This document shows positions 10,887-52,206 of a DNA stretch of 64,000 nucleotides, piece after piece. Within the stretch, counting starts at the first letter, position 1, and the number at the start of each line of letters is the position of its first letter. The translations under genes were made by a program, and so were the position numbers. Below the pieces are notes generated by a model. That model had not been told where the DNA came from, did not search any database, and worked only from the letters and a program-made list of their open reading frames with translations. Source of the stretch: Gemmatimonadales bacterium (GTDB lineage: Bacteria > Gemmatimonadota > Gemmatimonadetes > Gemmatimonadales > GWC2-71-9); NCBI GenBank assembly GCA_036556505.1, contig DATBJH010000077.1, positions 6,862 through 70,861 on the forward strand, read 5' to 3'.

Positions 10887-12614
10887 TCACCAATCGCGGT
10901 CTCCGGTCGGCCCTCGGCTGCTCCGGCGCCCCTCGTGCGCGGTAAGCTGTTGCCGCTCCACCGCCTCCAGAAGACGACGCGCCTCGTCCGCCGTCAGCTC
11001 CTCGGCCGACTCTCCCTCGGCGCTGCCGTAACCGCCGCCCGCCATCGCGCCCACCGCCGCGTCCGGGTTTCCCTCGTAGCCGGGCACATGGTTGTCGCCC
11101 CGTCCGTAGTCGGCGTTACGGCCCTGCCCGGACGAGCCGCCGCTGGTGCGGTCGTCCCCCAGTCGGCGGAGGGCGACCTCGAGATTCCAGCGGGCTTCGG
11201 CGTCGCCGGGGGCGAGATGAAGCGCCTCCTCGTAGGCGCCGACGGCATCGAGCAGCGGTGCCGGCTCACCCGGTCGCTCCTCGGCGGCGCGGACCAAGGC
11301 GTTGCCGAGGTTGTAGAGACTTTGCTGCCGGAGGTCGGCGGCGCGGGCGGCCTGACGAAACGCGGCCACCGCCTCGTCGTAGCGCTCCAGCCGGTAAAGC
11401 GCGGCGCCCGCGTCGAACGCCAGCCGGGCACTGCTGTCGCGCTCGAGGCCGAAGCGGAAGACGTCGTAGGCCTCGGGGTAGCGGGCCTGATGGTACAGCC
11501 GCTCGCCGCGGTGGGCGGGAGAGCAGGACCCGGCCAGAAGGGTCACCACAACTGTCATCCCGAGCGTAGCGAGGGATCTTCTCTGGGCGGGCAGGATCCC
11601 TCGCTGCGCCCGGGATGACAAGGACGGCGCTCGGGATGACAGCTCGGCCAGCAGGAGCAGGACGATCATGAGACCCAGCGGCCACTGGTACCGGTCCGCC
11701 CGCTCGCTCGTCTTCCTCGCCGCGAGCGTCCGCGGCTGCACCCGGCCGAGCGCGGTCACCAGCGTCCGCAGCTCCTCGGCCCGGTCCCATCGCGCGTAGG
11801 CTCCGCCGGTCGCGGCAGCGATGGCCCTGAGCTCATCCTCCTCCAGCCGGGATACGATCACCCGGCCGAGGTGGTCCCGGTGGTAGCGTGCCTCGGTGCT
11901 GTCGGCAGGCACCGGCCCGCCACGACCGGTGCCGATGCCGACCGCGAAGACCGGCAGCTCCTGCTCGCGCAGCGCCTCGATCGCGGGCTCCAGGTTGCCC
12001 TCGCCGCTCTCTCCATCGCTCACGAGCAGCACGGCGCGGCGACCCTCCTCGCCCTCGTGCTCGAACGCGCTCGCGGCCGCGAGCAGCGCCGCGGAGACGT
12101 CGGTGGCGGGATCTCCCAGATCGTCCTGGCTGGCCGCGTCGAGAAACAGCCTGAGCGAGGCCCGGTCGGAGGTGAACGGCATCTGGAGAAACGCACTGCC
12201 GCCGAACACGACCAGCCCGACGCGGTCGCTCGGATAGGCCGAAACCACTGCCCAGGCGAGCCGTTTCGCGGTCGCCAGTCTGGTCCTCCCTTCCGTATCG
12301 CTCGTGCCCATCGAGCGAGACAGATCGAGCAGCAGGAGCAGGTCCCGGCCGGTTCGAACCATCTCGCTCTCCCGCTCGCCCAGTTGGGGGCGGGCCAGCG
12401 CCAGCATCCCGAGCCCGACCGCGGCGACCCGGAGCGCGGCGGTCGTCCGGATCCGGCGGGGGGTCGCGAGCGACGAGCCCCGACGCAGCACCGCCTCGTC
12501 GCCGAACGCTGCCAGCGCTACGCGGCGCGCGCGCTCGGCGCGGCGGACGAGCCATGTCACCAGCGTCAGCGCCGCGAGGCCCAGCGGCAGCACCCAGGGA
12601 TACGCGAAGCTCAC
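10887..12614 (-). CDS. BatB-like VWA-domain membrane protein continuous with a BatC-like TPR lipoprotein (single 575-aa ORF)
   Basis: The N-terminal half has the MIDAS motif DLSRSM and flanking TM segments. The C-terminal half has the MTVVVTLLAGSC lipobox-like start plus TPR-like repeats. The two halves are joined by sequence encoded by a palindromic repeat (11553-11641) that contains no stop codon. Confidence 0.75.
   Translation of the reverse strand: MSFAYPWVLPLGLAALTLVTWLVRRAERARRVALAAFGDEAVLRRGSSLATPRRIRTTAALRVAAVGLGMLALARPQLGERESEMVRTGRDLLLLLDLSRSMGTSDTEGRTRLATAKRLAWAVVSAYPSDRVGLVVFGGSAFLQMPFTSDRASLRLFLDAASQDDLGDPATDVSAALLAAASAFEHEGEEGRRAVLLVSDGESGEGNLEPAIEALREQELPVFAVGIGTGRGGPVPADSTEARYHRDHLGRVIVSRLEEDELRAIAAATGGAYARWDRAEELRTLVTALGRVQPRTLAARKTSERADRYQWPLGLMIVLLLLAELSSRAPSLSSRAQRGILPAQRRSLATLGMTVVVTLLAGSCSPAHRGERLYHQARYPEAYDVFRFGLERDSSARLAFDAGAALYRLERYDEAVAAFRQAARAADLRQQSLYNLGNALVRAAEERPGEPAPLLDAVGAYEEALHLAPGDAEARWNLEVALRRLGDDRTSGGSSGQGRNADYGRGDNHVPGYEGNPDAAVGAMAGGGYGSAEGESAEELTADEARRLLEAVERQQLTAHEGRRSSRGPTGDRDW
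11553..11641. repeat. REP/MITE-like palindromic element, copy 1 (TGTCATCCCGAGCGTAGCGAGGGATC ... GATCCCTCGCTGCGCCCGGGATGACA, plus an extra half-site GCGCTCGGGATGACA)
   Basis: The inverted repeat was read directly. It is related to the copies at 23817, 39011 and 50318. It lies inside the BatB/BatC ORF. Confidence 0.85.
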
Positions 12615-14564: not shown

Positions 14565-15442
14565 CGCCACAGCCGGCTCTCCCTCCGCCGGAAGAACGCC
14601 AGCAGCGGCTCGGCGTAGGACGCGCCGGTGTCCAGCCGGAGCAGGTCCGCCCCCGACTCGCGTAGCGTGTGCTCCAGCCGTGCAGCGAACTCGGCGGCCC
14701 GGAGCCGGAAGCGCTCGCGCAGGGTGCGGTCGGACGTGTTCACCACTCGCCACGCCCCACTCTCCGCGTCCCACAGCGTCACCAGCCCGACGTCGGGCAG
14801 CTCCCGCTCCCGCGGGTCCACTACCTGGATCGCGATCAGATCGTGCCGCCTTGCCAGCCGGCCCAGGGCCGCCTCCCAGCCGCTGCAGATGAAATCGGAC
14901 ACGAGGAAGATGACGGCGCGACGCCGAAGCATCGGCTCCAGATAGGCGAGCGCGGCGCCCAGGTCGGTGCCCGCCCCCCGAGGCTCGAAGGCGAGCAGGT
15001 CGCTGATGACGCGGAGGGCCTGACGTCGCCCTTTGCGCGGGGCCACGTAGTGCTCGACCCCGTCGGTCGCGAGCACCGCGCCCACGCGGTCGTTGTTGCG
15101 AGCGGCCGCGAGGGCGAGCACGGCGCACACTTCGGTGGTGAGGTCGCCCTTGGTCCGGCGGACGCTGCCGAAGCGGGCGGAGGCGCTCTGGTCGGCCACG
15201 AAGAGCACGGTGAGCTCGCGCTCCTCGAGGTAGCGCTTCACGTAGGCGGAGCCGAGCCTGGCGGTGACGTTCCAATCGATGGTGCGGATGTCGTCGCCGG
15301 GCTGGTACTCACGGACCTCGGCGAACTCGACCCCGCGGCCGCGAAACGCGCTGGAGTACTCCCCGGCCATGATGTCGCGCACGAGGTGGCGCGTAGTGAT
15401 CTCCAGGCGCCGGACCTCGCGCGTGACCTCCTCCGGGCTCAT
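14561..15442 (-). CDS. DUF58 domain protein (MoxR-associated, VWA-like)
   Basis: 293-aa ORF with REYQPGDDIRTIDWNVTARL, the DUF58 signature. It has 4-nt overlaps with both neighbouring genes. Confidence 0.88.
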   Translation of the reverse strand: MSPEEVTREVRRLEITTRHLVRDIMAGEYSSAFRGRGVEFAEVREYQPGDDIRTIDWNVTARLGSAYVKRYLEERELTVLFVADQSASARFGSVRRTKGDLTTEVCAVLALAAARNNDRVGAVLATDGVEHYVAPRKGRRQALRVISDLLAFEPRGAGTDLGAALAYLEPMLRRRAVIFLVSDFICSGWEAALGRLARRHDLIAIQVVDPRERELPDVGLVTLWDAESGAWRVVNTSDRTLRERFRLRAAEFAARLEHTLRESGADLLRLDTGASYAEPLLAFFRRRESRLWR

Positions 15443-16440
15443 GGCACCGGCACCGCCTCGAGAATGCGGCGCAGCACCTCATCCGCGCCCACGCCTTCGG
15501 CGTCCGCGCGGTAGGTGAGGATGATCCGGTGCCGGAGGACGTCGAGGCCCAAGGCCTTGATGTCGTCCGGGGTGACGTAGGCGCGGCCCTGGAGGAAGGC
15601 ATGGGCCTTGGCCGCGCGGAGCAGGAAGATGGCCGCGCGTGGCGAGGCGCCGAACTCGATCAGCGGGGCGATCCCGCCCAGGCCCGCATCCGCCGGCCGC
15701 CGTGTGGCGGCGACCAGGTCGAGCACGTACTCCTTGATCCGGTCGTCGGCGTAGATCTGGTGCACCAGCCGCCGCGAGCGCAGGATCCCTTCCGGGTCGA
15801 GCACCTGACGCACCGCCGGCTCGTCACCCAGCGTCATCCGGTCCAGCACCTCCCGTTCCTCCCGCCGCTCCGGGTAGGTGACGGCCAGCTTGAACATGAA
15901 GCGGTCCACCTGCGCCTCGGGGAGCGGATAGGTCCCTTCGTGCTCGATCGGGTTCTGGGTGGCGAGCACCAGGAACAGCTCGGGCAGCGGGAAGGTGCGC
16001 CCGCCGATCGTCACCTGTTTCTCCTGCATGGCCTCCAGCAGCGCGCTCTGGACCTTGGCCGGCGCGCGGTTGATCTCGTCGGCGAGCAGGAGGTTGGTGA
16101 AGATCGGCCCCTGCTGAACCGTGAAGTCGCCGGTCCGCTGGTTGTAGATCATGGTGCCGATCAGATCGGCCGGCAGCAGATCCGGAGTGAACTGGATCCG
16201 GTGGAAGCCGGCTGAGATGGTGGCGGCGAGAGTGCGCACCGCCAGGGTCTTGGCGAGGCCGGGCACGCCCTCGAGCAGCACGTGGCCGTCCGCCAGGAGG
16301 CCGATCAACAGCCGCTCCAGCATGGCGCGTTGCCCGACGATGACCCGGCCGATCTCTTCCGTCAGCACGGCGGTCAGCCGGGCATGCTCCTCGATCTCGG
16401 CGGTGGGGAGGAGGTCCCGGCGTTCGGGGATGGAGGTCAT
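15439..16440 (-). CDS. MoxR-family AAA+ ATPase
   Basis: 333-aa ORF with Walker A (GVPGLAKT), Walker B (LLADEINRA) and a typical MoxR C-terminal region. Confidence 0.93.
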   Translation of the reverse strand: MTSIPERRDLLPTAEIEEHARLTAVLTEEIGRVIVGQRAMLERLLIGLLADGHVLLEGVPGLAKTLAVRTLAATISAGFHRIQFTPDLLPADLIGTMIYNQRTGDFTVQQGPIFTNLLLADEINRAPAKVQSALLEAMQEKQVTIGGRTFPLPELFLVLATQNPIEHEGTYPLPEAQVDRFMFKLAVTYPERREEREVLDRMTLGDEPAVRQVLDPEGILRSRRLVHQIYADDRIKEYVLDLVAATRRPADAGLGGIAPLIEFGASPRAAIFLLRAAKAHAFLQGRAYVTPDDIKALGLDVLRHRIILTYRADAEGVGADEVLRRILEAVPVP

Positions 16441-16453
16441 CGGAGAAATCTAA

Positions 16454-16485
16454 GGCGGTACGGCGGTACGGCGGTACGGCGGTAG
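16454..16485. repeat. Octamer tandem array, 4 units (GGCGGTAC x3, GGCGGTAG)
   Basis: Read directly. It lies in the divergent region between the moxR ATG (16440) and the beta-propeller gene (16557). Confidence 0.9.
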
Positions 16486-19847: not shown

Positions 19848-20844
19848 GCGATTGCGCGAGCGGGGGCCGGTCCCCGAGCATCGCTGCGTGTGCGGGCAGC
19901 GGCTGCACAAGTACTGGAACCACTGTCCCAACTGTTCCCGCGAGCTCCAGTGGCGCGACCTGGACAACGTCACCGGCGCCGAATGCTTCAACTGCGGCTG
20001 GATCGTCTCCGACAAGTTCTCCTGGTGCCCGTGGTGCGCGGCGGACATCTACGAGGAGGGCTACTCCAGCGAGACGCCGCTCAAGGCGCCGAAGGGCTTC
20101 CGGATGGACGCCCGCTGCGACTGGGGCTGCGGTGGCGGAGTACAGTACCCGATGCCCAACTGCCCCTGGTGCGGGCGGGCCCAGCATTGGGACGAGTCGG
20201 ACCGGTTCGAGGGCGACTGCCCCCACTGCGGCCGCGGAGTGGACGACTGGATGAACGCCTGCCCCTGGTGCGGCAGCGACGCCACCGGGCGCGACCTCAT
20301 CCCCCGGGCGCTCACCCGGGCTCGCCGGCTGCTCCTGGTGAGCCGGATCCGCGACTGGGGGTACCGGGTGCTGCTCCGGCCCGGCATCTCGGGCGTGGAT
20401 CCGCGCTACCCCAAGATCGTCGAGATCGAGCAGCGCTACGTCGTGGGCAAGCGGCGGCAGGACGAGATTCCGTGGACCATGCTGGTCGGGCTGATAACCC
20501 ACGAGCTGGGCCACAGCTTCCTGTACCATCATTGGGACTGGACCCGCAGCCGGCGCTTCCGCCGAGCCTTCGGCGACGTGGACAAGGCCTACCGGGCCAT
20601 GGACAACACCTGGGTGTACTTCCAGCGCCGCCGCATTGCGATCGCACCGCGAGACCACGTCAGCGCGTACGCGGCCAAGCATCCCCAGGAGGATTTCGCC
20701 GAGACGTTCCGGTTTTACGTCACCCGGCGGGGTCGGCTGCGCGACCTGTTCGCGGAGTTCGGACAGAAGCGGAAGGGTGTGATCCTGTACGAGAAGTTTC
20801 TCGTGCTGCACGACTTCGTGCGGGCGCTGCGGGGGTGGGGATAG
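19834..20844 (+). CDS. Four-zinc-ribbon protein with a C-terminal HExxH (zincin-like) putative metallopeptidase domain
   Basis: The ATG at 19834 overlaps the ATP-grasp gene by 14 nt. There are four CxxC/CxC...CP(N/W)C units. These are followed by THELGHS and, about 60 aa later, QEDFAETF. The ORF-track extension back to 19432 is rejected. Confidence 0.75.
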   Translation: MSARRRLRERGPVPEHRCVCGQRLHKYWNHCPNCSRELQWRDLDNVTGAECFNCGWIVSDKFSWCPWCAADIYEEGYSSETPLKAPKGFRMDARCDWGCGGGVQYPMPNCPWCGRAQHWDESDRFEGDCPHCGRGVDDWMNACPWCGSDATGRDLIPRALTRARRLLLVSRIRDWGYRVLLRPGISGVDPRYPKIVEIEQRYVVGKRRQDEIPWTMLVGLITHELGHSFLYHHWDWTRSRRFRRAFGDVDKAYRAMDNTWVYFQRRRIAIAPRDHVSAYAAKHPQEDFAETFRFYVTRRGRLRDLFAEFGQKRKGVILYEKFLVLHDFVRALRGWG

Positions 20845-22473: not shown

Positions 22474-22485
22474 GGCATGAGAATG

Positions 22486-22657
22486 GGCGGTAAGGCGGTA
22501 AGGCGGTAGGGCGGTACGGCGGTACGGGGGTACGGCGGTACGGCGGTACGTCCTTCCCACCCGACCACCTGACCGGCTGACCGCCCGGCCGGCTGACCGC
22601 CCGACCGGCTGACCGCCCGACCGCCTGCCCGCCTTACCGCCCGACCGCCCGACCGCC
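22486..22657. repeat. Inverted pair of octamer tandem arrays: 8 x GGCGGTAM (22486-22549), a short spacer, then 12 x CYGACCGS (22561-22656)
   Basis: Units were read and counted directly. The arrays occupy most of the 196-nt divergent intergenic region between 22473 and 22670. Confidence 0.9.
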
Positions 22658-22669
22658 TACTATCCCCCC

Positions 22670-23827
22670 ATGACCCTCCGGCTCTACTACACCGACTCGT
22701 ATCTGCAAGAGTTCGATGCCGCCGTCGTGGATCGCGCCGAGGGGGGCCGCCGCGTGTACCTCGACCGGACCGCATTCTACCCTGCGTCCGGCGGCCAGCC
22801 CCACGACATCGGCGCGCTCGACGGTAATCCGGTACTGGACGTGGTGGACGAGGGTGACCGTATCGCCCACCTGCTGGCCGAGCCGGTGGGTGCGGCAACG
22901 GTGCACGGGGCGGTCGACTGGCCACGGCGCTTCGATCACATGCAGCAGCACAGCGGCCAGCATCTCCTCTCGGCTGCGCTGCACGAGCTCTTCGGCCACA
23001 CTACGATCGCGGTGCACTTCGGGCGCGAGAGCTCAACGCTCGACCTGGACACGCCGGACCTGGAGCAGCCGCGCCTGGTCGAGGCGGAGGCGCGCGCGAA
23101 CGACATCGTCATCGAGAATCGGCCGATCGAGGTCGGTTTCGAGGAGGCATCGGAAGCGGCCGGACTGCGAAAGGCGTCGGTCCGAGAGGGAACGCTGCGC
23201 ATCGTGACGATCCGCGATCTCGACCGGAGCGCCTGCGGCGGCACGCACGTCCGCGCCACCGGTGAGATCGGCCCGATCCTCATTCGGAAGTCGGAGCGGG
23301 TGAAGAGGAACCTGCGCCTGGAGTTCGTCTGCGGCGCCCGGGCCGTGCGCCGCGCGCGCGCCGACCTCGATCTGCTCTCCCGGCTCGCCGTCCAGTTCTC
23401 GGCGGCGGCGGAAGAGCTCCCGACCCTGGTGGAGGCCCAGCGGGCCGAGCTCCGGGCGGCTGTGGGAGGGCGACGCGAGCTGGAAGCGAGTCTGGCCCGC
23501 TACCGCGCCCGGGAGTTGTACGACGCCGCGCCCGACGGGGTGCCGCGACGGATCGTCGTGCGGGAGGAAGAGGGACCGATCGAGCGGCTCCGTCCGCTGG
23601 CTCAGGCGATCGCGACGATGCCGCGGTCGTTGTTCGTGGGCTGGACCGTGAACCCGCCCGCCCTCGTCGTCGGCGCCTCGGAGGATTCCGGGATAAACGC
23701 CGGCATGGCCCTCAAGGCCGCGCTGGCCGGTGTAGAAGGACGGGGCGGCGGAAACGCCAGATTGGCGCAGGGAACCGCGCCGTCGGCGGCTGCAATTGAG
23801 CTGGCTGTGGGACGATTGTCACCCTGA
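22670..23827 (+). CDS. Alanyl-tRNA editing protein, AlaX-L type (tRNA synthetase class II editing/SAD domains)
   Basis: 385-aa ORF with MTLRLYYTDSYL, the zinc motifs QHSGQHLLS and CGGTHV, and a DHHA1-like C-terminus. Confidence 0.85.
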   Translation: MTLRLYYTDSYLQEFDAAVVDRAEGGRRVYLDRTAFYPASGGQPHDIGALDGNPVLDVVDEGDRIAHLLAEPVGAATVHGAVDWPRRFDHMQQHSGQHLLSAALHELFGHTTIAVHFGRESSTLDLDTPDLEQPRLVEAEARANDIVIENRPIEVGFEEASEAAGLRKASVREGTLRIVTIRDLDRSACGGTHVRATGEIGPILIRKSERVKRNLRLEFVCGARAVRRARADLDLLSRLAVQFSAAAEELPTLVEAQRAELRAAVGGRRELEASLARYRARELYDAAPDGVPRRIVVREEEGPIERLRPLAQAIATMPRSLFVGWTVNPPALVVGASEDSGINAGMALKAALAGVEGRGGGNARLAQGTAPSAAAIELAVGRLSP

Positions 23828-23884
23828 GCGCAGCGCAGGGGACCATGTTCGGTGTCGCCCCTTCCCTTCGACTATCAGGGTGAC
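23817..23884. repeat. REP/MITE-like palindromic element, copy 2 (TGTCACCCTGAGCGCAGCGCAGGGGACCATGTTCGG... imperfect right arm ...CAGGGTGAC)
   Basis: Read directly. It spans the whole convergent gap and overlaps both stop codons (TGA 23825-27, TAG complement 23884-86). It is closest to the copy at 50318. Confidence 0.8.
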
Positions 23885-25257
23885 TATCCCAGCTCCGTGA
23901 CCAGCGCCTCGACCGACGTAGGACAGAGCGCCGTGCCCGCGAGCCCCCGAAGAATCGCGATCGCCTCGTGCCGCGGGAGCCCCTTGCGATAGGGACGATC
24001 CGCGGTCGTCGCCTCGTAGACGTCGGCCACCGCGAGCGCCCGGCTCATGGGCGAGAGCCGCTCCCCCGTGAGACCCAGGTGGTAGCCCTTCCCGTCCAGC
24101 CGCTCGTGATGCGCACTCGCGACCGTGACGATCGCCGAGAACGCCCCCACCCGCTCCAGGATCCGCTGCGTGTAGGCCGGATGGACCCGGATCTCCGCCC
24201 GCTCCCGCTCGGTCAGCCGGTCTGGTTTGTCGAGGATCAGGGTGGAGACCCCGAGCTTGCCGATGTCGTGCAGCAGCCCGGCGCGACGCAGATCGCGCAG
24301 CTGGACGTCGCTGAAGTGCAGGTGCCGGCCGATGGTCACAGCCAGCTCCGCCACCCGCTCCGAATGCAGGTAGGTGAAGGGCGACTTGGCGTCGATCACC
24401 CTGGCGAATGCCCGCGCGATGTCATCCAGCCGCGCCTCGTCGGCCAACCGCACCTCATCCTCGGGCTCGAGTGCACCCAGCCACCGCTCGGGTGAGCGGC
24501 CCAGCACCTTGGCCCAGAAGTCGTCGTCGTCCGCGAGGCCGCGGAACGCGTCCACCAGGGTCGGATCGAACCAGCGGCCGCGCCGGTCCACCGCCATCTC
24601 GATCGCCGCGTCCGGGCCGAAGGTGCTGGCGAAGACCTCCGCCGTCTGGGCCAGACTCACGATGCGTCCCAGCAGCGGAATCGCCGGGCCCGACAATCCA
24701 TCCGGCATCCCGTTGCCGTCCCAGTGCTCGTCCAGGGTGCGGATCGCCTCGCGGGTGGCGCTGGTGAAGCCCAGCGTCGCGGCGATGTCCCCTCCGCGGT
24801 CGCAGCGGGTTCGGGCCATCTCCCGTCCGCTGCCCTTCTCGTGCATCCACATCGAGGCGACGTGGAGGGCACGCCCCATCGGTGAGGCGCCCGGCACCGC
24901 GTTGCGGAGCGCGTACCGCAGACTCCGCGTCGGCCGCGACCAGTCCGTCAGCTTGTGGTCCCGCTTGAGCGCGCGGTCGTCGGCGCCGAAGAGCGAGCAG
25001 AGCCGGGCCGCGTTGCTGGAACAGCCCAGATCCTTCAGCAGGAGCGCGTAGAACAGCGAGCCCCGGTCTTCCGACGGCACGCCGACCCGCTCCGCCAGGT
25101 GCATGCCGATGAGGCCGGTGCGCACGGCGTGCCCGGGCGCCTGGCCCTCGGTGATGTCGAGCGCGCAGGAGAGCGCCGAGAGGATCTCGGAGATCCGGTA
25201 GGTCGACTCGCGGACCGGTACGGTGCGAACAAGACTAGCGGTCATTGGCCGGGACAC
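23884..25257 (-). CDS. HD-GYP-type phosphohydrolase domain protein (degenerate N-terminal HD-like region plus C-terminal HD domain)
   Basis: 457-aa ORF. The C-terminal domain has HSERV...LLHDIGKLGV...HHERLDGKGYHLGL. The N-terminal region has a degenerate LLKDLGC in place of LLHDIGK. Confidence 0.85.
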   Translation of the reverse strand: MSRPMTASLVRTVPVRESTYRISEILSALSCALDITEGQAPGHAVRTGLIGMHLAERVGVPSEDRGSLFYALLLKDLGCSSNAARLCSLFGADDRALKRDHKLTDWSRPTRSLRYALRNAVPGASPMGRALHVASMWMHEKGSGREMARTRCDRGGDIAATLGFTSATREAIRTLDEHWDGNGMPDGLSGPAIPLLGRIVSLAQTAEVFASTFGPDAAIEMAVDRRGRWFDPTLVDAFRGLADDDDFWAKVLGRSPERWLGALEPEDEVRLADEARLDDIARAFARVIDAKSPFTYLHSERVAELAVTIGRHLHFSDVQLRDLRRAGLLHDIGKLGVSTLILDKPDRLTERERAEIRVHPAYTQRILERVGAFSAIVTVASAHHERLDGKGYHLGLTGERLSPMSRALAVADVYEATTADRPYRKGLPRHEAIAILRGLAGTALCPTSVEALVTELG

Positions 25258-36315: not shown

Positions 36316-38979
36316 ATGGATTCACGTCAGCAGGATATCGCCCAGGGCCTGAGCGGCCGCTACGTCATCGAGCGCGAGCTCGGGCGCGGCGGCATGGCGA
36401 GCGTCTGGCTGGCACGGGACGTCCGTTACGACCGGATGGTCGCGCTCAAGGTGCTCCACCCGGACCTGGCAGCGACACTGGGCCCCCAGCGCTTCCTGCG
36501 CGAAATCATGCTGGCCGCCCGCCTCCAGCACCCTCATATCGTGCCGGTCTACGATTCCGGCGAGATCCCTTCCTCCCGCGCGACGGTACCGCCCATCCTG
36601 TGGTTCACGATGCCGTGGATCGAAGGCGAGTCGTTGCGCGAGCGGCTGGGACGTGAGGGACGACTTTCTCCGCCCGAGGCGGTCAGGATCGCCCGCGAGG
36701 TCGCCCGCGGCCTCCAGTACGCCCACGACCACGGCGTGATCCACCGCGACGTGAAGCCGGAGAACATCCTGCTCACCAGGGACGGGAGCACGATGGTCGC
36801 GGACTTCGGCATTGCCCGACCTGCCGGGACCGCGGGCACGGAGCATCTGACAGGGACCGGCGTCGTGATCGGCACTCCGATCTACATGAGCCCGGAGCAG
36901 GCGGTGGGAGGTGAGCTGGATCCCCGCGCGGATGTGTACTCACTCGGTTGCGTCCTGTACGAGATGCTCACCGGCGGGCCGCCGTTCGGCGGAGCGACGG
37001 TGCAGGAGGTCGTCGCTCGCCACCTGACCGAGCCGCCGCCGCTCTCCGGCACACGGGTCGCCGAAATTCCCGGCGTCCTCAAGGCCGCCCTGGGCCGGGC
37101 GCTGTCCAAGTCCCGCGACGATCGTCCGGCGACAGCCGCACAGTTCGCCGAGTCGCTCGGCAGTCAGGACGGAAGCGTGGCGATGTCGAGCCGCCGACGC
37201 GCGGCCGCGGTGGCCGCGGTCGCGGGCGCGGCCGGGCTGGCGGCCTTCGTGGCGCTCCGCGGACCGTCCGACGACGCGGGCGCGCCGACGGGTTCGTCCT
37301 CCCAAGGCACCGTGGCGTCGGGATTCGCGCGCCGCCTGACCCAGCTCACCTCGCGGGAAGGCCTGGAGGAGTGGCCGACCTGGTCCTCCGACGGGCAGCA
37401 GCTCGCTTACGTGGCCGAGGTGAACGGCTACCGCCAGCTGTTCGTGCGACCAGTCGCCGGCGGCGCGGAGCGGCAGCTTACCGACGACCCGCGGGACCAC
37501 ATCCAGCCGGCGTGGTCACCCGACGGTGCGCGCATCGCGTTCGTGCGCGGCGCTACCGCCACCGGCAAGCTCGAGCCCGACGAAGTGGACGGGTACTACT
37601 TCGAGGGAGCCGAACTGTGGAGCATTGAGCTCGGCTCGGGGGAGGCCTCCAAGCTGCTGGAGGACGGATTCAACCCCTCGTACTCGCCGGACGGGCAGCG
37701 TCTCGCCTTCGACGCCGAGCTCGCAGGAGCGCAGCGGGTCTGGGTCGCGGACACTCGCGGGCGCAACCCCCGTCAGGTGACCTCCGATTCCAGCGAGGCC
37801 GTGGTGCACACCGAGCCCCACTGGTCGCCCGACGGCTCGAGGCTGGTCTTCCGGCGTATCGAGAAGCTGAAGTCCGACATCGCCATCGTGAACCCGACGA
37901 CGCAGGCGGTCACCCGGGTGACGGACGATTACGTGGTGGACGTGTATCCGACATGGATGCCCGACGGTCGCGCGATCGTCTTCTCGTCCAGTCGCGGTGG
38001 CGGCGTCAATCTCTGGCGGGCGCGGCTCGACCAGGACGGCTCACCGAAGGGCCTGGAGCAGCTCACCACCGGAGCGGGTGACGACGTGCAGGCCTCGGTG
38101 CATCCCGATGGGCGCGAGCTCGTGTTCGCCGTCCGAGGCATCAACTCCGACCTCTGGCAGCTGCCGGTCTCGCCCGAGACGGGCCGACCGGCGGGAAACC
38201 CGACGCCCGTGCTCGGCACGACCCGGGTCGAGAGCCGCGGCACCTGGTCGCCGGACGGCCGGCAGCTCGCGTTCAATTCGGATCGTGCCGGCGAGATGAA
38301 CATCTGGGTGCTGGACTCGGCCCGACACGAGCGTCGGGTGACAGTCGGTCCCGGAGGCGATTACCAGCCCGACTGGTCGCCGGACGGCCAGGCTCTGGTG
38401 TTCTTCTCCGCCCGCGGCGGCAATACCGACATTTGGCGGGTACGACTCTCGGACACGTCGCTCACCCGCCTCACCCAGGATCCGGCGCTGGACATCAACC
38501 CGGCGAATTCACCGGACGGACAGCGGATCGCCTTCGTCTCCGACCGGAGTGGACGGTTCGAGGTCTGGGTGATGCAGGCCGACGGCACCGCACAGCAGCA
38601 GGTAGCCTCGGTGGGCTGCTGGGGTCACTTCGTGGCCTGGACCACGGACAGCAGGGCAATCGTCTTTCGAGGCGAGCGGGACCGACAGATGCAGATCTAT
38701 CGGGTCGACGTCGCGAGCGGCGCGCTCACGCCGCTGCCACCCGTGCGCAGCGGCGGCCACATGTCGTTCTCGCCCTCGCAGTCGGTGATCATGGACGTCA
38801 ACAGCCACAAGGTGATCTGGGCCCATCCCGTCAACGGCGGGCCGCCCTACGAGATCTACCAGTTCCCGGACCCGGATGTGCGCATCGACTACCCGCGCTG
38901 GTCGCGAGACGGGCGGCTGGTCGTGTTCGACCGTACGGCACCCCGGGGAGCGGATCTGTGGACGTTGGAGGGGTTCTAG
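36316..38979 (+). CDS. Ser/Thr protein kinase fused to TolB-like (WD40-like) beta-propeller repeats
   Basis: 887-aa ORF. The kinase domain has HRDVKPENILL, DFGIA and GTPIYMSPE. A TM segment follows, then about 10 repeats containing the WSPDG motif. Confidence 0.9.
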   Translation: MDSRQQDIAQGLSGRYVIERELGRGGMASVWLARDVRYDRMVALKVLHPDLAATLGPQRFLREIMLAARLQHPHIVPVYDSGEIPSSRATVPPILWFTMPWIEGESLRERLGREGRLSPPEAVRIAREVARGLQYAHDHGVIHRDVKPENILLTRDGSTMVADFGIARPAGTAGTEHLTGTGVVIGTPIYMSPEQAVGGELDPRADVYSLGCVLYEMLTGGPPFGGATVQEVVARHLTEPPPLSGTRVAEIPGVLKAALGRALSKSRDDRPATAAQFAESLGSQDGSVAMSSRRRAAAVAAVAGAAGLAAFVALRGPSDDAGAPTGSSSQGTVASGFARRLTQLTSREGLEEWPTWSSDGQQLAYVAEVNGYRQLFVRPVAGGAERQLTDDPRDHIQPAWSPDGARIAFVRGATATGKLEPDEVDGYYFEGAELWSIELGSGEASKLLEDGFNPSYSPDGQRLAFDAELAGAQRVWVADTRGRNPRQVTSDSSEAVVHTEPHWSPDGSRLVFRRIEKLKSDIAIVNPTTQAVTRVTDDYVVDVYPTWMPDGRAIVFSSSRGGGVNLWRARLDQDGSPKGLEQLTTGAGDDVQASVHPDGRELVFAVRGINSDLWQLPVSPETGRPAGNPTPVLGTTRVESRGTWSPDGRQLAFNSDRAGEMNIWVLDSARHERRVTVGPGGDYQPDWSPDGQALVFFSARGGNTDIWRVRLSDTSLTRLTQDPALDINPANSPDGQRIAFVSDRSGRFEVWVMQADGTAQQQVASVGCWGHFVAWTTDSRAIVFRGERDRQMQIYRVDVASGALTPLPPVRSGGHMSFSPSQSVIMDVNSHKVIWAHPVNGGPPYEIYQFPDPDVRIDYPRWSRDGRLVVFDRTAPRGADLWTLEGF

Positions 38980-39147
38980 GCGGTCGGGCGGTCGGGCGGT
39001 CGAAGCTGCCTGTCATTCACGAGGAGCGCAAGCGACGAGTGATCTTCTGCCCAATGTCGAATCATCCGCGAGGGAGATCCCTCGCCTCGCTCGGGATGAC
39101 AGAAGGCGCTCGGTCCGGCTGACCGCCCGACCGCCCGACCGCCCGCC
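38979..39147. repeat. Composite nested inverted repeat: 3 x GGCGGTCG, then REP-like palindrome copy 3 (39011-39101), then CTGACCGC CCGACCGC CCGACCGC CCGCC
   Basis: Read directly. It begins at the last base of the kinase TAG and ends one base before the FtsH-type gene's stop (39148-50). Confidence 0.9.
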
Positions 39148-41037
39148 TCACAACGACCGCAGCGAGCCCGGCCGGCGGGAGCCGCGGAGGCGGTCGTCGG
39201 CCACCCGGCGGCGAAGCGGATCGTCGGTCGTGACGCCGTGCCCGTGGAGAATGGCGATGGCCTCCGCGCCTTCCAGGGTCTCCCGCTCGAGCAGCGCATC
39301 GGCCAGGGCCTCGAGCGCGGCGCGATGGCGATCGATGGCCTCCCGCACACGCGCATACAGCGCCTCGACGATGGTGCGCACGTCGCGGTCCATCGCGGCG
39401 TGGAGCTCGCCGCTCACCGCGCCGACGCCCTCGCGGTCATCGAACGCCACCAGCCCCGTGCCCGGCCCCATGCCCAGCTTGTAGACCATCTCGCGCGCGA
39501 CCCGGGTGGTGTACTGGAGATCGGCCTTGGCGCCGCTGGTGACCGCCTCCGGGCCGAACACGATCTCCTCCGCCGCCCGGCCACCCAGGCCCTTGCAGAT
39601 CTGGCCCTCGAGAAAGCGCCGAGTGTGCAGCACCAGCTCGCCCGGAGAGAAGTGGGCCACGCCCATCGCCTGGCCGCGCGGCTGAATGGTCACCTTGTGG
39701 AGCCCCTCCTCCGCGTGGAACAGGAGTCCCGCGAGAGCATGTCCCGCCTCGTGCACCGCCACCGCCCGCCACTCGTCGTCGGAGGCGCGGAAGCCCGTCC
39801 ACTCCTTTCCCAGAAGTAGCCGGTCGCGCGCCTGCTCGACGTGCTCCCAGCTCACCACCGTCGCACGCTCGCGCGCGGCCGCGATCGCCGCCTCGTTCAC
39901 CAGGTTCGCCAGCTCGGCGCCGCTGGTCTGCGGCATCAGCCGGGCGAGCCGGGCGAGGTCAACGCTCTCGTGCAGCGGCACCCCGCGCTGCCGCACGTGG
40001 AGCCGCAGGATCGCCTCGCGCTCCGCCGCCGTCGGCAGACCTACCGCCACGGCGCGATCGAACCGGCCGGGCCGGAGCAGGGCCGGATCCAGATCCTCCT
40101 GCCGGTTGGTCGCGCCGATCACCAGCACGTGCTCGCGGGGCGAGAATCCGTCCATCTCCACCAGCAGCTGGTTGAGAGTGCGATCGTCCTCGTTGTGACT
40201 CTGGTTGCGTCCCCGCCGGCCGCCGATCGCGTCGAGCTCGTCGATGAAGATCACGCCGCCGCGCCGGCGCGCCTGGCGGAAGAGCTTCTTGATCCGAACC
40301 ACGCCAAGCCCGATGAGGAAGCCGGTGACCTCGCTGCCGCTGATCACGAAGAACGGCACCCCTGCCTCGCCGGCCACCGCGCGCGCCATCAGCGTCTTGC
40401 CGGTGCCGGGAGGGCCGAACATGAGGACGCCCTTCGGCGTCCGCGCGCCTACGGCCCGGAACGCCTCGGGCGCCCTGAGGAACTCCACCAGCTCGCGCAG
40501 CTCCGCCACCGTGCCCTCGTGACCTCCTACGTCGGCGAAGGTGGTGCGGCTCCGTCTCGCGGCGCCGATGGAGCCCATCTCCGACCCTCCACCCATCTGC
40601 CGGCGAAGGATGAAGCCGACCACGAAGAGGGCCACCGCGACCAGGAGCACTTCGCGCCAGAACTCGGCGTTGACCCCGCTCCTGCGCTCCAGCGTCGCCG
40701 GCGTGCCGGCGCGCTCGGCCCGGTCGAGCACCGGAGTGACCTCGAAGGTGGGATACTCCACCCGGAACCCGCCGCCGGCCTCGGCATCGCCGACGGGCCG
40801 GGACCAGACGCCGCGCACCTCCGACCCGGGAATGACGGTGATGGACTGCACCGCCCCCTGCTGGAGGCGCTGGAGAAAGACCGAGTAGCTGACCGTCGGC
40901 GGTGTCGGCGGCAGCGCGCGCCACCAGCGGACGGCGAGGGCGGCCGCAGCGATCGTCGCGACGATGGCGAGAGGCCAGATCCAACCGGCAGGCGTGGAGC
41001 GCCAGCGGGTGAGACGCCGGCGGAAATCCTTGATCAT
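39148..41037 (-). CDS. ftsH: ATP-dependent zinc metalloprotease, FtsH family
   Basis: 629-aa ORF with N-terminal TM segments, Walker A (GPPGTGKT), an AAA core and the zinc motif HEAGHA. Confidence 0.9.
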   Translation of the reverse strand: MIKDFRRRLTRWRSTPAGWIWPLAIVATIAAAALAVRWWRALPPTPPTVSYSVFLQRLQQGAVQSITVIPGSEVRGVWSRPVGDAEAGGGFRVEYPTFEVTPVLDRAERAGTPATLERRSGVNAEFWREVLLVAVALFVVGFILRRQMGGGSEMGSIGAARRSRTTFADVGGHEGTVAELRELVEFLRAPEAFRAVGARTPKGVLMFGPPGTGKTLMARAVAGEAGVPFFVISGSEVTGFLIGLGVVRIKKLFRQARRRGGVIFIDELDAIGGRRGRNQSHNEDDRTLNQLLVEMDGFSPREHVLVIGATNRQEDLDPALLRPGRFDRAVAVGLPTAAEREAILRLHVRQRGVPLHESVDLARLARLMPQTSGAELANLVNEAAIAAARERATVVSWEHVEQARDRLLLGKEWTGFRASDDEWRAVAVHEAGHALAGLLFHAEEGLHKVTIQPRGQAMGVAHFSPGELVLHTRRFLEGQICKGLGGRAAEEIVFGPEAVTSGAKADLQYTTRVAREMVYKLGMGPGTGLVAFDDREGVGAVSGELHAAMDRDVRTIVEALYARVREAIDRHRAALEALADALLERETLEGAEAIAILHGHGVTTDDPLRRRVADDRLRGSRRPGSLRSL

Positions 41038-49960: not shown

Positions 49961-50305
49961 ATGCCGTTCGACAACACCTGGGACCAGGAAGACGCGTGGT
50001 GGCGTGAGAACTACGGGGGTCGCCCGTATGCCACCGGCCGCAGCTATGAGGAGTTTCAACCAGGATACCGCTACGGATACGAGTCCGGGCGGCATCATCT
50101 GGGCAGGACGTGGAACGAGGTGGAAGCGGATCTTCGGACCGGCTGGGACAAGTACGAGCACCGGGGTACGTCCACCTGGGAGAGAATCAAGGATGCGGTG
50201 CGCGATGCGTGGCACCGGGTCACCGGTCAGAACGACATGGAGGCGAGCCGGATGAGCGAGAGCGAAGTCGATCGGCTCTCGCATGGTGGCAGGCCGCGGA
50301 ACTAG
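49961..50305 (+). CDS. Small Trp/Tyr-rich hypothetical protein (114 aa)
   Basis: ATG at 49961, preceded by GGGAGG. The sequence is MPFDNTWDQEDAWWRENYGGRPY...GYRYGYESG.... The family is not identified. Confidence 0.55.
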   Translation: MPFDNTWDQEDAWWRENYGGRPYATGRSYEEFQPGYRYGYESGRHHLGRTWNEVEADLRTGWDKYEHRGTSTWERIKDAVRDAWHRVTGQNDMEASRMSESEVDRLSHGGRPRN

Positions 50306-50317
50306 GCCTCGAGGTAG

Positions 50318-50384
50318 TGTCACCTTGAACGCTGTGAAGGGGGCCATGTTCGGCATGGTCCCCTTCGCTACGCTCAGGGTGACA
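50318..50384. repeat. REP/MITE-like palindromic element, copy 4 (TGTCACCTTGAACGCTGTGAAGGGGGCCATGTTCGGCATGGTCCCCTTCGCTACGCTCAGGGTGACA)
   Basis: Inverted repeat read directly. It overlaps the stop codon and last codons of the minus-strand FG-GAP gene. Confidence 0.85.
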
Positions 50385-52206
50385 AACGCTCCCAGTACAC
50401 CATCCCGCCTCCCGCTCCGCCCAGCACCAGATCCACATCCCCGTCGCCATCGAGGTCCCCCGCGGCGGGCGCGGCCAGCAGAGGCACTTCCAGGGCGAAC
50501 GTCGAGTCGCGCACCAGCCGTGCGGCCGAGCCTGAGCCGTCATTGCGGAAGAGTGCGACCCCGTCGCTCTCCGAGCCGACCAGCAGGTCGAGATCTCCGT
50601 CTCCATCCAGATCGACCAGCGCCGGTGCGCTCCGCCGGCCGACCCGGATCTGCTCGAACTCGTCGCTGACCAGCTCGAAGCGGGGGGCGCGCGCATCGCC
50701 GGCGTTCCGGTAGTAGTTGAGCCAGCCCGAAGATTCACCCACCAGCAGGTCCTGGTCCCCGTCGCCATCGAGATCGCCGAGCGCGGGGACAGTGTTGCTG
50801 CCGCGGGTGATGGTGACGAGTGCGGTGTCCGCCGCTTCGAAGCCGGCGGCGGTGCCGCGGTACCAGGCCAGACGTGGCCCCCATTGACCGAGGAGTGCGT
50901 CGAGCCGTCCGTCGCCGTCGAGGTCGGCGAACGCCGGGGACGCGTGGAACCGCCGGCCGAGGGCAAGCGGGGCGCGCATCCGGAAGGCCGGGCGCCGAAC
51001 GGTACCGACGTTCTCCAGCCGATAGACGAATGACGTTCGCGGATCCGAGGGATCGAGCTTGTTCGAGAGCACCAGGTCGAGATCGCCGTCGCCATCGAGA
51101 TCGGCGATCGCGGGGATCGACTCACTCCCGATGTCGAGCACGGGGAGCAGGCGGCGGCTGCGCACCTGCCAGGCGGAGCCCTCGCGCGTCAGGTAGTAGA
51201 GGTTTTCGGCGGAGGTGCGCAAGGGGTTGTAGGCCCCGCCGAGCACCCCTATGACCAGGTCGGCCCGGCCGTCTCCGCTCAGGTCGCCGAAGGCCGGCGC
51301 ATTGTAGCCCGAGGTGAGCAGCGGGCTGCCAACGGGGAATTGCACCGGCGGACTGCGGAAATTCGGCGCGTGGCAGGTGCCGCTGTTCGGGATCAGCAGG
51401 AGCCCCGGCTCGAAGAAGTCGCCCCAGAAGAGATCGAGGTCCCGATCGCCGTCGTGGTCCGCCAGTGCCATGGTGTTGGCGCCGTGCATACTCGGCCCTA
51501 CCGGCAGGGTCGGGCCGCCCTGCTGGCCGATGATCCTGATGCCCTCGAACTCGTTCGCCACCAGGCGGAAGGACGGCGCGCCCCGGGGATCGGAGGTCGC
51601 CGCCTCGTAGCGAGCCACCGTGCCGTCCAATCTCCCGATCAGGAGGTCGGAACGGCCGTTGCAATCGAGGTCGCCGAGCTGGGGAATGTTCTGCCGGTCG
51701 GAGAAGATCGGGGTGCGGTCCACGTCCCGCAGCGTGTCGGCAGCCAGGACGAAGCGGTACGCGCCCCGCGCCCCGTCGTTCCGGTAGTACTTGATGTAGC
51801 TGAACGGCTGCTCGGCGAGGAGATCGAGGTCGCCGTCGCCATCGACATCCGCGAAGCGGTACCACTCGCCGACGTCGAGGTCGCCGTACCTGGAGCTCCG
51901 AGGCATGAACCGGGGCAGGCCGTCGCGCTCGCCGTCACGCTCGAAGAGGGCGACACTCCCGGTCACTTCCTGGAGGAAGAGGTCGAGATCGCCGTCACCA
52001 TCCGCGTCCACGAGCTGGGGTCGTGGCGCATTGAAGCCCCCATGGAACGGCAGCTCGAGCGGGCGGCCGAGGGTGTCCGTCACCTCGAAGGGGGCGATGA
52101 CGGCCCGGTATCGGCCGCCGCCCACCTCGGGGTTCGGAGGCCCGACGGAAGCGCCGCCGCACGCCGTCGCGGCGAGGAGGAGGAGCGGGCCCGGCCGGAG
52201 CTTCAG
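50374..52206 (-). CDS. FG-GAP/VCBS-repeat lipoprotein (integrin-alpha-like beta-propeller)
   Basis: The ORF track begins at GTG 52125. The in-frame upstream sequence encodes (L)KLRPGPLLLLAATACGGAS, a lipoprotein signal reachable only from CTG 52206, which overlaps the upstream TGA. There are many D.DGDGD.DL repeats. Confidence 0.8.
   Translation of the reverse strand: MKLRPGPLLLLAATACGGASVGPPNPEVGGGRYRAVIAPFEVTDTLGRPLELPFHGGFNAPRPQLVDADGDGDLDLFLQEVTGSVALFERDGERDGLPRFMPRSSRYGDLDVGEWYRFADVDGDGDLDLLAEQPFSYIKYYRNDGARGAYRFVLAADTLRDVDRTPIFSDRQNIPQLGDLDCNGRSDLLIGRLDGTVARYEAATSDPRGAPSFRLVANEFEGIRIIGQQGGPTLPVGPSMHGANTMALADHDGDRDLDLFWGDFFEPGLLLIPNSGTCHAPNFRSPPVQFPVGSPLLTSGYNAPAFGDLSGDGRADLVIGVLGGAYNPLRTSAENLYYLTREGSAWQVRSRRLLPVLDIGSESIPAIADLDGDGDLDLVLSNKLDPSDPRTSFVYRLENVGTVRRPAFRMRAPLALGRRFHASPAFADLDGDGRLDALLGQWGPRLAWYRGTAAGFEAADTALVTITRGSNTVPALGDLDGDGDQDLLVGESSGWLNYYRNAGDARAPRFELVSDEFEQIRVGRRSAPALVDLDGDGDLDLLVGSESDGVALFRNDGSGSAARLVRDSTFALEVPLLAAPAAGDLDGDGDVDLVLGGAGGGMVYWERLSP

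Follow-up and report, generated by a model that had tools for sequence, protein, structure and literature searches.

Copy-number-variable octamer arrays and REP-like half-sites between convergent genes of a Gemmatimonadales bacterium

Background

Bacterial intergenic repeats, such as repetitive extragenic palindromic (REP) sequences, bacterial interspersed mosaic elements (BIMEs), REPINs (hairpin-forming REP doublets) and uptake sequences, have chiefly been elucidated in Proteobacteria. Here, we analyze a 64,000-nt stretch of DNA (hereafter, the window) from a soil Gemmatimonadales bacterium (assembly GCA_036556505.1, contig DATBJH010000077.1, positions 6,862 to 70,861), in which the convergent gap between a kinase-PD40 (TolB-like) Ser/Thr kinase gene (36316-38979, + strand) and an FtsH-type AAA/M41 protease gene (39148-41037, - strand) is occupied by a nested inverted repeat. 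This target locus, at 38979-39147, consists of two tandem octamer arrays as outer arms and REP-like half-sites between them.

BIMEs are characterized by the binding of IHF, gyrase and Pol I. The target shares their architecture only, i.e., an extragenic mosaic of inverted imperfect palindromes and other short motifs; elements of both kinds are frequently located in convergent gaps or at 3' ends, and stable 3' hairpins are predicted for the mRNAs. However, the target has no sequence similarity to them, and tandem octamer arrays, which are also found solo and at promoters, form its outer motifs. The initial annotation, made from the sequence alone, had likened the locus to these mosaics; the likeness is fair, as the core consists of REP-like half-sites in a REPIN-like arrangement. 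Rho-independent terminators and the inverted pairs of DNA uptake sequences in Neisseria and Haemophilus are other cases of GC-rich inverted repeats downstream of genes, with a lineage-specific short word. In contrast to these, the target has no U-tract, its hexamer is not over-represented as a solitary word, and its arrays are tandem and are present at 5' ends, too. Cyanobacterial short tandemly repeated repetitive (STRR) heptamers form lineage-specific 7-nt intergenic tandem arrays with small palindromic repeats nested in them or adjacent. They parallel the GCTATCN heptamer lineage described below, although the phylum and the units are different.

REPINs are mobilized by RAYT transposases (PMC3116915, PMC3337134); small dispersed repeats (SDRs) are mentioned in PMC3116915 as well. 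The Gemmatimonadales palindromes (TGTCAYCC...GGRTGACA) likewise consist of two short, inverted palindromic half-sites with a spacer, form hairpins and are gained and lost between relatives. An inverted doublet with a hairpin fold was found at 11550-11644 and at 50305-50388 of the window, while the target copy is degenerate, being a weakly folding hybrid of two subfamilies. The Gemmatimonadales elements differ from REPINs in their head motif (TGTCA versus the GTAG type), in the putative GNA-triloop mini-hairpin with tandem G.A pairs that makes up the half-site, and in their overlap with stop codons and, in one case, their in-frame position within a gene.

Structurally, the arrays have their nearest precedent in Geobacter metallireducens, where four-unit arrays of GTTGCTYN form 24 pairs on opposite strands at variable distances and a global regulator has been proposed (PMC2700814). 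Intergenic opposite-strand array pairs, variable spacing, restriction to one genome and absence from a close relative are common to both systems; the unit (GTTGCTYN versus GGCGGTNN) and the number of units (fixed at four versus hypervariable, 3-13, here) differ. In Brucella, a hypervariable octamer variable-number tandem repeat (VNTR) family comprises 8-bp tandem repeats at multiple loci, and even very close strains differ in their copy number (PMC1513380). These octamers are the closest precedent for the hypervariability of the Gemmatimonadales arrays. To our knowledge, inverted pairing, a gene-end polarity rule or an association with palindromes has not been reported for the Brucella family.

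Results and discussion

Anatomy and folding of the convergent gap

We read the target locus, at about even odds, as a non-essential mosaic: each gene end anchors one slippage-prone array, and the two arrays enclose a decayed REPIN-like doublet. The two genes converge with a stop-to-stop spacing of 168 nt, the TAG stop of the kinase gene lying at 38977-38979 and the TGA stop of the FtsH-type gene at 39148-39150. The left outer arm, (GGCGGTCG)x3 at 38979-39002 (+ strand), begins with the G of the TAG stop (base 38979), and its G-rich strand points away from the kinase gene. The right outer arm (39121-39147, - strand) consists of (GACCGCCC)x3.1 (39121-39145) continuing as CCGCC to 39147; on the - strand, it reads GGCGGGCGGTCGGGCGGTCGGGCGGTC and points away from the FtsH-type gene. 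Both arrays were 100% matches in tandem repeats finder (TRF), and the coordinates and sequences of the arms agree with the initial description. The outer arrays were also correctly recognized as reverse complements: 38979-39001 and 39121-39143 are 100% complementary over 23 nt, and the nested inverted repeat does span the whole gap, starting at both stop codons. The motif GGCGGTNNGGCGGT (at most one mismatch) occurs 23 times in the window versus 1.87 times expected, a number reached by 0 of 100 shuffles, and 29 permutations of the hexamer yielded no arrays other than phase shifts of the same array.

Inside the arms, the left linker AAGCTGCC (39003-39010) is partially complementary to the right linker GAAGGCGCTCGGTCCGGCT (39102-39120), within which one degenerate octamer is located. 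The core comprises a subfamily-B half-site (39011-39044, + strand; TGTCAT-TCAC-GAGGAGCGCAAGCGACGA-GTGA-TC), a unique spacer (39045-39062) and a compact hairpin (39063-39101, - strand; TCATCC-GCGAGGGA-GA-TCCCTCGC-..-GGATGA) that contains a subfamily-A half-site (39073-39101, - strand; 41.5 bits, E 4e-10) with a mutated triloop position (GCGAGGC versus GCGNAGC). The core had initially been described as an inner palindrome extending over 39011-39101. Only its 7-nt ends (CTGTCAT/ATGACAG) and the compact hairpin pair, and the remainder does not: the DNA fold of 39008-39104 alone is no better than that of shuffles (z = -1.6 and -1.2), and the two halves belong to different subfamilies of one half-site family, placed head-out. 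When the core was used as a BLAST query, the shared half-site was the only match.

The long hairpin expected of a transcript from either strand is borne out by prediction: the RNA fold of 38960-39170 has an energy of -122.4 kcal/mol on the + strand (z = -6.4 relative to shuffles) and -116.7 kcal/mol on the - strand (z = -5.0). The target thus has the GC-rich stem-loop of an intrinsic terminator in the form of its 23-bp perfect outer stem. No U-tract terminator was detected on either strand of 38700-39400, the sequences 3' of the stems being CCTCACAACG (+ strand) and TAGAACCCCT (- strand), and scans for sigma-70 consensus promoters and terminators gave no hits at the target or in the divergent array gap described below. 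The initial annotation did not recognize the element as belonging to a described family, and our searches agree. The Rfam cmscan of 38500-39600 (E up to 10) returned four chance-level matches only, all outside 38979-39147; no match was obtained when 38960-39170 was compared with 5,426 E. coli genomes by blastn in distant mode; a plasmid similarity search yielded a single short Streptomyces plasmid match confined to the flank; and neither repeat family was found described in the searchable papers when Gemmatimonas repeats, GGCGGT octamers and the half-site sequence were looked up.

Arrays at other loci

Two more array loci are present in the window. A solo array, (GGCGGTAC)x4 at 16454-16483 (+ strand), lies directly upstream of TAGATT-N6-ATG of a MoxR gene (15439-16440, - strand), 13 nt from the start. 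A convergent array pair, (GGCGGTAN)x8 followed by (NNACCGCC)x8-12 at 22486-22657, fills a divergent promoter gap (22474-22669) that is almost wholly composed of arrays. Both arms of this pair run up to a -10-like hexamer (CATTCT, TACTAT) located 5-6 nt before ATG and leave 12 nt to the start codon; this layout is suggestive of leaderless transcription, the arrays taking the place of the -35 region.

A scan of GTDB species genomes for arrays of at least four units revealed at least 119 loci, of which at least 64 are in Gemmatimonadota metagenome-assembled genomes. Thus, the elements are not unique to the target locus; uniqueness would, according to the initial annotation, have spoken against its proposal. 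Among the matches listed, the GGCGGT core is constant and the 2-nt spacer varies within the array in the 64 Gemmatimonadota loci, while Streptomyces and other taxa harbor uniform microsatellites. Positional conservation among the GTDB loci listed was seen in one orthologous pair only, the window and locus L064, which is syntenic with the window (~93% protein identity) and carries the MoxR array at the same position with other spacers. MoxR homologues at 81-86% identity were those of Gemmatimonadales, which, together with the similarity to L064, assigns the window to a Gemmatimonadales genome; an exact-protein look-up of the AlaX-like gene returned no record. In 295 kb of relatives' contigs reached via the FtsH gene, no GGCGGT array of at least three units was found, which indicates a patchy and not an order-wide distribution of the family.

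The arrays and palindromes, which had initially been regarded as a single composite element, occur independently of each other. Arrays without palindromes are found at 16454-16483, at 22486-22657 and in L099 and L121, and palindromes without arrays at 11553-11641, 23817-23885 and 50318-50384 and in L015 and L068. The cores enclosed by paired arrays are REP-like doublets in L051, L032, L090 and the target, canonical terminator hairpins in L068 and L109, or only 9-22 nt of sequence. Since these cores are unrelated, the array, and not the mosaic, is the recurring unit. The array pairs of L068 (3905-4016) and L109 (957-1054) surround terminator hairpins with T-rich tails, so the arrays supplement rather than replace ordinary terminators. 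In L032 (3300-3345) and L090 (3505-3550), the arms facing the GGCGGTNN arrays are composed of other tandem octamers (CGCCCTTC and CCACCGGC); therefore, the arms of a pair are not always built from one unit.

Polarity relative to gene ends

Among the matches listed, the array pairs within 300 nt of each other comprised 15 convergent (G-array, then C-array) and 0 divergent cases, the former having 3-10 units and being separated by 9-121 nt; in 44 of 61 arrays, the gene next to the 5' end of the G strand was closer than the gene on the other side, as it was in 27 of 37 (p = 0.008) when only solo arrays were considered; and arrays lay beside stops in 34 cases and beside starts in 35, with 18 of the 34 stop-side arrays starting 0-8 nt past the stop. 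Consequently, the view of the arrays as a 3'-end feature could not be upheld, the two further window loci also being at starts. The start-side arrays typically extend right up to a TANNNT-like hexamer located 5-7 nt before ATG (TAGATT, TACTAT, TACCTT, TATCTT), and TANNNT-N5-6-ATG is kept in the MoxR orthologues of five relatives. The start-side arrays would therefore occupy the -35 region of leaderless promoters. Because an array at a 5' site lies upstream of the -10-like hexamer, the proximal spacing is unaffected by the number of units.

Copy-number variation and turnover of orthologous gaps

The target locus was recovered in six metagenome contigs in which the kinase-side arm has 3, 4 or 6 units and all other bases are identical; the FtsH-side arm has three units in all seven sequences. 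The gap at 22474-22669 is 180, 188, 196 or 204 nt long in the population, with changes of units and spacers in both arms, and several contigs end inside it. Both 38979 and 22474-22669 thus show the head-to-tail units with copy numbers differing among close strains that define a VNTR. The MoxR-upstream array (16454-16483) was invariant in 10 contigs. The target arrays are located downstream of both stops and accordingly do not have the expression-switch character of a contingency locus.

The orthologous FtsH/kinase gaps differ markedly from the target. In L131 (84% FtsH identity), the gap is 15 nt long and consists of just TGA-TGGGCGGGGCGGAGC-CTA; in L127 (93%), it is a 35-nt mini-array; in L126, L129 and L130 (94-95%), it contains a different REP-like hairpin; and in L128 (91%), it contains this same hairpin, whose CCCTGA provides the stop of the FtsH orthologue. 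Array-like seeds are present at "empty" orthologous sites, namely, TGGGCGGGGCGGAGC (L131), GGCGGTGAGCGGTAA (L209) and GTGTCCGCCGTCCCGCC (L205). Elsewhere in the window, convergent amine oxidase and Peptidase_Mx genes meet at 20844/20845 with a 0-nt stop-to-stop gap; the L209 counterpart of this gap is 56 nt long and contains GTCCCGCC x3.6. Since relatives' gaps lack the target element and a convergent gap of the window has no length at all, the element is dispensable. The comparison of orthologous intergenic regions, in which the initial annotation had seen a way to assess the element, showed that it is missing from the gaps of close relatives; this absence and the variable unit number of the kinase-side arm mark it as unstable. 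As judged from these comparisons, the target mosaic is short-lived, with fast turnover between close relatives.

Other units in related lineages

Relatives possess arrays of other units at comparable sites. Upstream of the MoxR orthologue in L207 (326-559), GGCGGAAC x3, a REP-like doublet and GTTCCGCC x11 follow each other, i.e., the same mosaic architecture as in the target with a unit differing by one base. In L208, whose MoxR is 87% identical, the corresponding site has GCTATCN x4 ... NGATAGC x4; a vestige is present in L205, and nothing is present in L209. Four gaps in the 21 kb of L208 (6499-6549, 9878-9986, 19476-19605 and 20803-20948) are filled by convergent GCTATCN/NGATAGC heptamer pairs of one chirality, flush with stops or -10-like boxes; one stop-to-stop gap is filled in this way, and no GGCGGT arrays were found in these 21 kb. 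Long hairpins with arms composed of tandem 7-8-mers were also observed in L166 (1877-1966), L132 (3867-3940) and L180 (520-620), their units being CACAGGGG, CGTRAAG and CACAGAG. Hairpin arms made of short tandem repeats may be common in this group.

The layout of a hexamer core plus a free spacer recurs as GGCGGT+NN, GGCGGA+AC and GCTATC+N. Within a genome, the unit is shared: GGCGGT at the three window loci, GCTATC at the four L208 gaps and GGCGGAAC in L207. One unit per genome, lineage-specific units and fixed chirality together argue for either dispersal between loci or a trans-acting factor, and we take the shared unit and the fixed chirality as a hint of such a factor or dispersal mechanism.

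Two sets of explanations for the arrays were set aside. G-quadruplex formation or C-rich Rho-loading (rut) sites were down-weighted as the basis of polarity because the GCTATCN lineage has the same architecture with no G/C strand bias. Roles as uptake sequences, Chi-like sites or restriction sites are disfavored because solitary hexamers outside arrays occur at an observed/expected ratio of ~1.

Origin and possible role of the mosaic

These data raise a key question: did the locus form by local growth of arrays at gene ends, or was it written, spread or maintained by something acting in trans? According to the local-growth reading, arrays of a conserved hexamer with a free 2-nt spacer (GGCGGTNN) would be set with the 5' end of the G strand against a gene end; arrays grown in from both genes would face each other and therefore form the perfect 23-bp outer stem. 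The number of units would shift by replication slippage, and the decayed REPIN-like doublet trapped between the arms would consist of two small self-folding half-site hairpins, head-out. A transcript from either gene would thereby gain a very stable stem-loop right after its stop codon, which could act as a pause or stop site devoid of a U-tract and, between the convergent genes, obstruct 3'-exonucleases. The target hairpin may, as modeled, stop or stabilize transcripts, and the 23-bp perfect duplex is probably long enough for RNase III; we treat any such effect on RNA as a by-product that is at most weakly selected. This reading builds on direct observations of the anatomy, family membership, polarity, copy-number polymorphism, orthologous-gap turnover and fold energies. 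Several points weigh against it. Local slippage alone leaves unexplained why one hexamer is used per genome and another in relatives, and why the chirality of the arrays is fixed; the invariant MoxR-upstream array, which keeps its position, could reflect constraint; the consequence of the hairpin for RNA is a prediction only; and the polarity counts are based on crude, GC3-based gene calls in the fetched loci, with 19 of 96 arrays overlapping long open frames and thus having no gene-end assignment.

The regularities that slippage leaves unexplained are accommodated by a tentative, less probable proposal, namely, that the arrays are a new Gemmatimonadales intergenic repeat system written, spread or read by a dedicated lineage-specific trans-acting factor. 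This factor could be an array-binding protein or an enzyme that adds repeats from a template or transposes them. The arrays would be placed flush with stops or -10 boxes in one chirality, usually as convergent pairs, and the target would be one instance with a nested REPIN-like palindrome. Another explanation, which we consider rather unlikely, regards the arrays as cooperative sites for a lineage-specific DNA-binding protein (nucleoid-associated or a ribbon-helix-helix global regulator) that recognizes one hexamer per 7-8 bp and serves to mark gene boundaries or to insulate them, the hairpin being incidental. The conserved hexamer next to a free spacer in all three layouts, the single unit per genome with different units between lineages, the strict chirality, the invariance and kept position of the MoxR-upstream array, and the location of arrays against -10-like hexamers (TANNNT-N5-6-ATG), i.e., in the -35 region of apparently leaderless genes, would all fit binding sites, as would solitary hexamers that are neither enriched nor avoided, which is expected if arrays alone were bound. 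The Geobacter metallireducens paired octamers were likewise proposed as global-regulator sites (PMC2700814). On the other hand, a single population already displays hypervariable unit numbers and spacers, the orthologous gaps of close relatives do without arrays, and half of the arrays neighbor a stop codon, a site at which one would not expect a promoter; moreover, the protein itself is a postulate.

Selection could instead act on the RNA structure, the target being a bidirectional terminator or insulator and mRNA 3'-end stabilizer comparable to enterobacterial REP/BIME. Its position between convergent genes, beginning at both stops, the very stable predicted folds of both strands, the lack of another terminator in the scan of 38700-39400, and the stop-to-stop filling of another convergent window gap by a REP-like hairpin (23817-23885) and of an L208 gap by a heptamer array pair favor this possibility. 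We nevertheless judge it unlikely: there is no U-tract, 15 nt suffice for the same gap in L131 and 0 nt for another convergent pair of the window, the arms are unequal in population variants, promoters and already canonical terminators are flanked by the same arrays, and the counts among the matches listed (34 versus 35) reveal no 3'-end bias. It is improbable that all 169 nt together make up a single non-autonomous mobile element, a miniature inverted-repeat transposable element (MITE) with the octamer arrays as terminal inverted repeats. Inverted arms of fixed chirality, a lineage-specific unit, presence or absence between relatives and an intergenic location whatever the gene orientation are what such an element would exhibit, but the cores differ among all array pairs, and BLAST of the target core detects nothing beyond the shared half-site, on which grounds a single mobile composite element was rejected; in addition, there are no target-site duplications, flanking direct repeats or conserved termini, many arrays are solo, and seeds resembling arrays remain at the "empty" orthologous sites of L131, L209 and L205. 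Chance similarity or an assembly artifact is scarcely credible. Short-read contigs do sometimes end within arrays; yet the motif GGCGGTNNGGCGGT is far more frequent than expected (23 versus 1.87 occurrences), identical structures recur in many independent assemblies with contigs of hundreds of kilobases to 1.8 Mb, and the arrays are presumably shorter than typical sequencing reads.

Whichever origin applies, a poorly studied soil phylum has its own repertoire of intergenic repeats, including octamer and heptamer arrays that change copy number within a population, hold a strict polarity to gene ends and differ in unit by lineage, and REP-like mini-hairpins that can supply stop codons and sit in frame in genes. 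If a trans-acting factor is real, the interest of the locus would rise, since the arrays would represent a new way to mark or insulate transcription units in compact, apparently leaderless, terminator-poor genomes. From a practical point of view, the arrays break short-read assemblies, generate spurious open reading frames (ORFs) and could serve as strain-typing markers.

The REP-like half-site family

The REP-like half-sites follow the pattern ATCCC-GA-GC-GNA-GC-GA-GGGAT. Across 33 copies, N of the GNA loop can be any base, and two stem pairs covary from T-A to C-G (19/13 and 19/14); as part of the stem was used in picking the copies, pair 6-24 is the only unbiased test of covariation. Drawing on published DNA-hairpin chemistry, we take the half-site to be a GNA-triloop mini-hairpin with tandem G.A pairs. 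The 18-nt core GAGGAGCGCAAGCGACGA of the subfamily-B half-site is also present in L093, where it is enclosed by TCCT/AGGA instead of TCAC/GTGA (a compensatory stem), and L116 contains three copies related to this half-site. Seven significant half-sites were found at four loci of the 64-kb window, i.e., about one element per 16 kb, and REP-like copies are present in many Gemmatimonadales contigs.

In addition to the target, the window contains three doublets. The doublet at 23817-23885 wholly includes the 56-nt convergent gap 23828-23883, and its CCCTGA is the stop of gene 22670-23827 (+ strand). The doublet at 50318-50384 (fold of 50305-50388, z = -6.0) provides the stop of gene 50374-52125 (- strand) in the same way, the TGA in both cases lying within CCCTGAGCG. 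The third, intact doublet (11553-11641; DNA fold of 11550-11644, z = -6.3) is located inside the ORF 10887-12614 (- strand), in frame in a linker of a conserved VWA-TPR (BatB-like) gene as ..SSRAQRGILPAQRRSLATLGMT.. (..SSRAQRGI..SLATLGMT..), similar to the in-frame palindromic elements of Rickettsia. Of the VWA-TPR orthologues, that of L209 carries an insert at this position, and that of L208 lacks one. Within this doublet, GGGATGACA offers an ATG ahead of the lipoprotein-like MTVVVTLLAGSC.

Judging by their distribution, the REP-like palindromes are gained and lost between relatives, often overlapping stop codons, and the family appears to behave like mobile DNA. Beside the conserved MoxR array of L064, at 357-470, a 20-nt unit, GAACGACTCGCTGTCACCCG, is repeated four times in tandem, each time including the head of a REP-like half-site, and the run precedes a complete doublet; it may be a trace of repeated abortive insertion.

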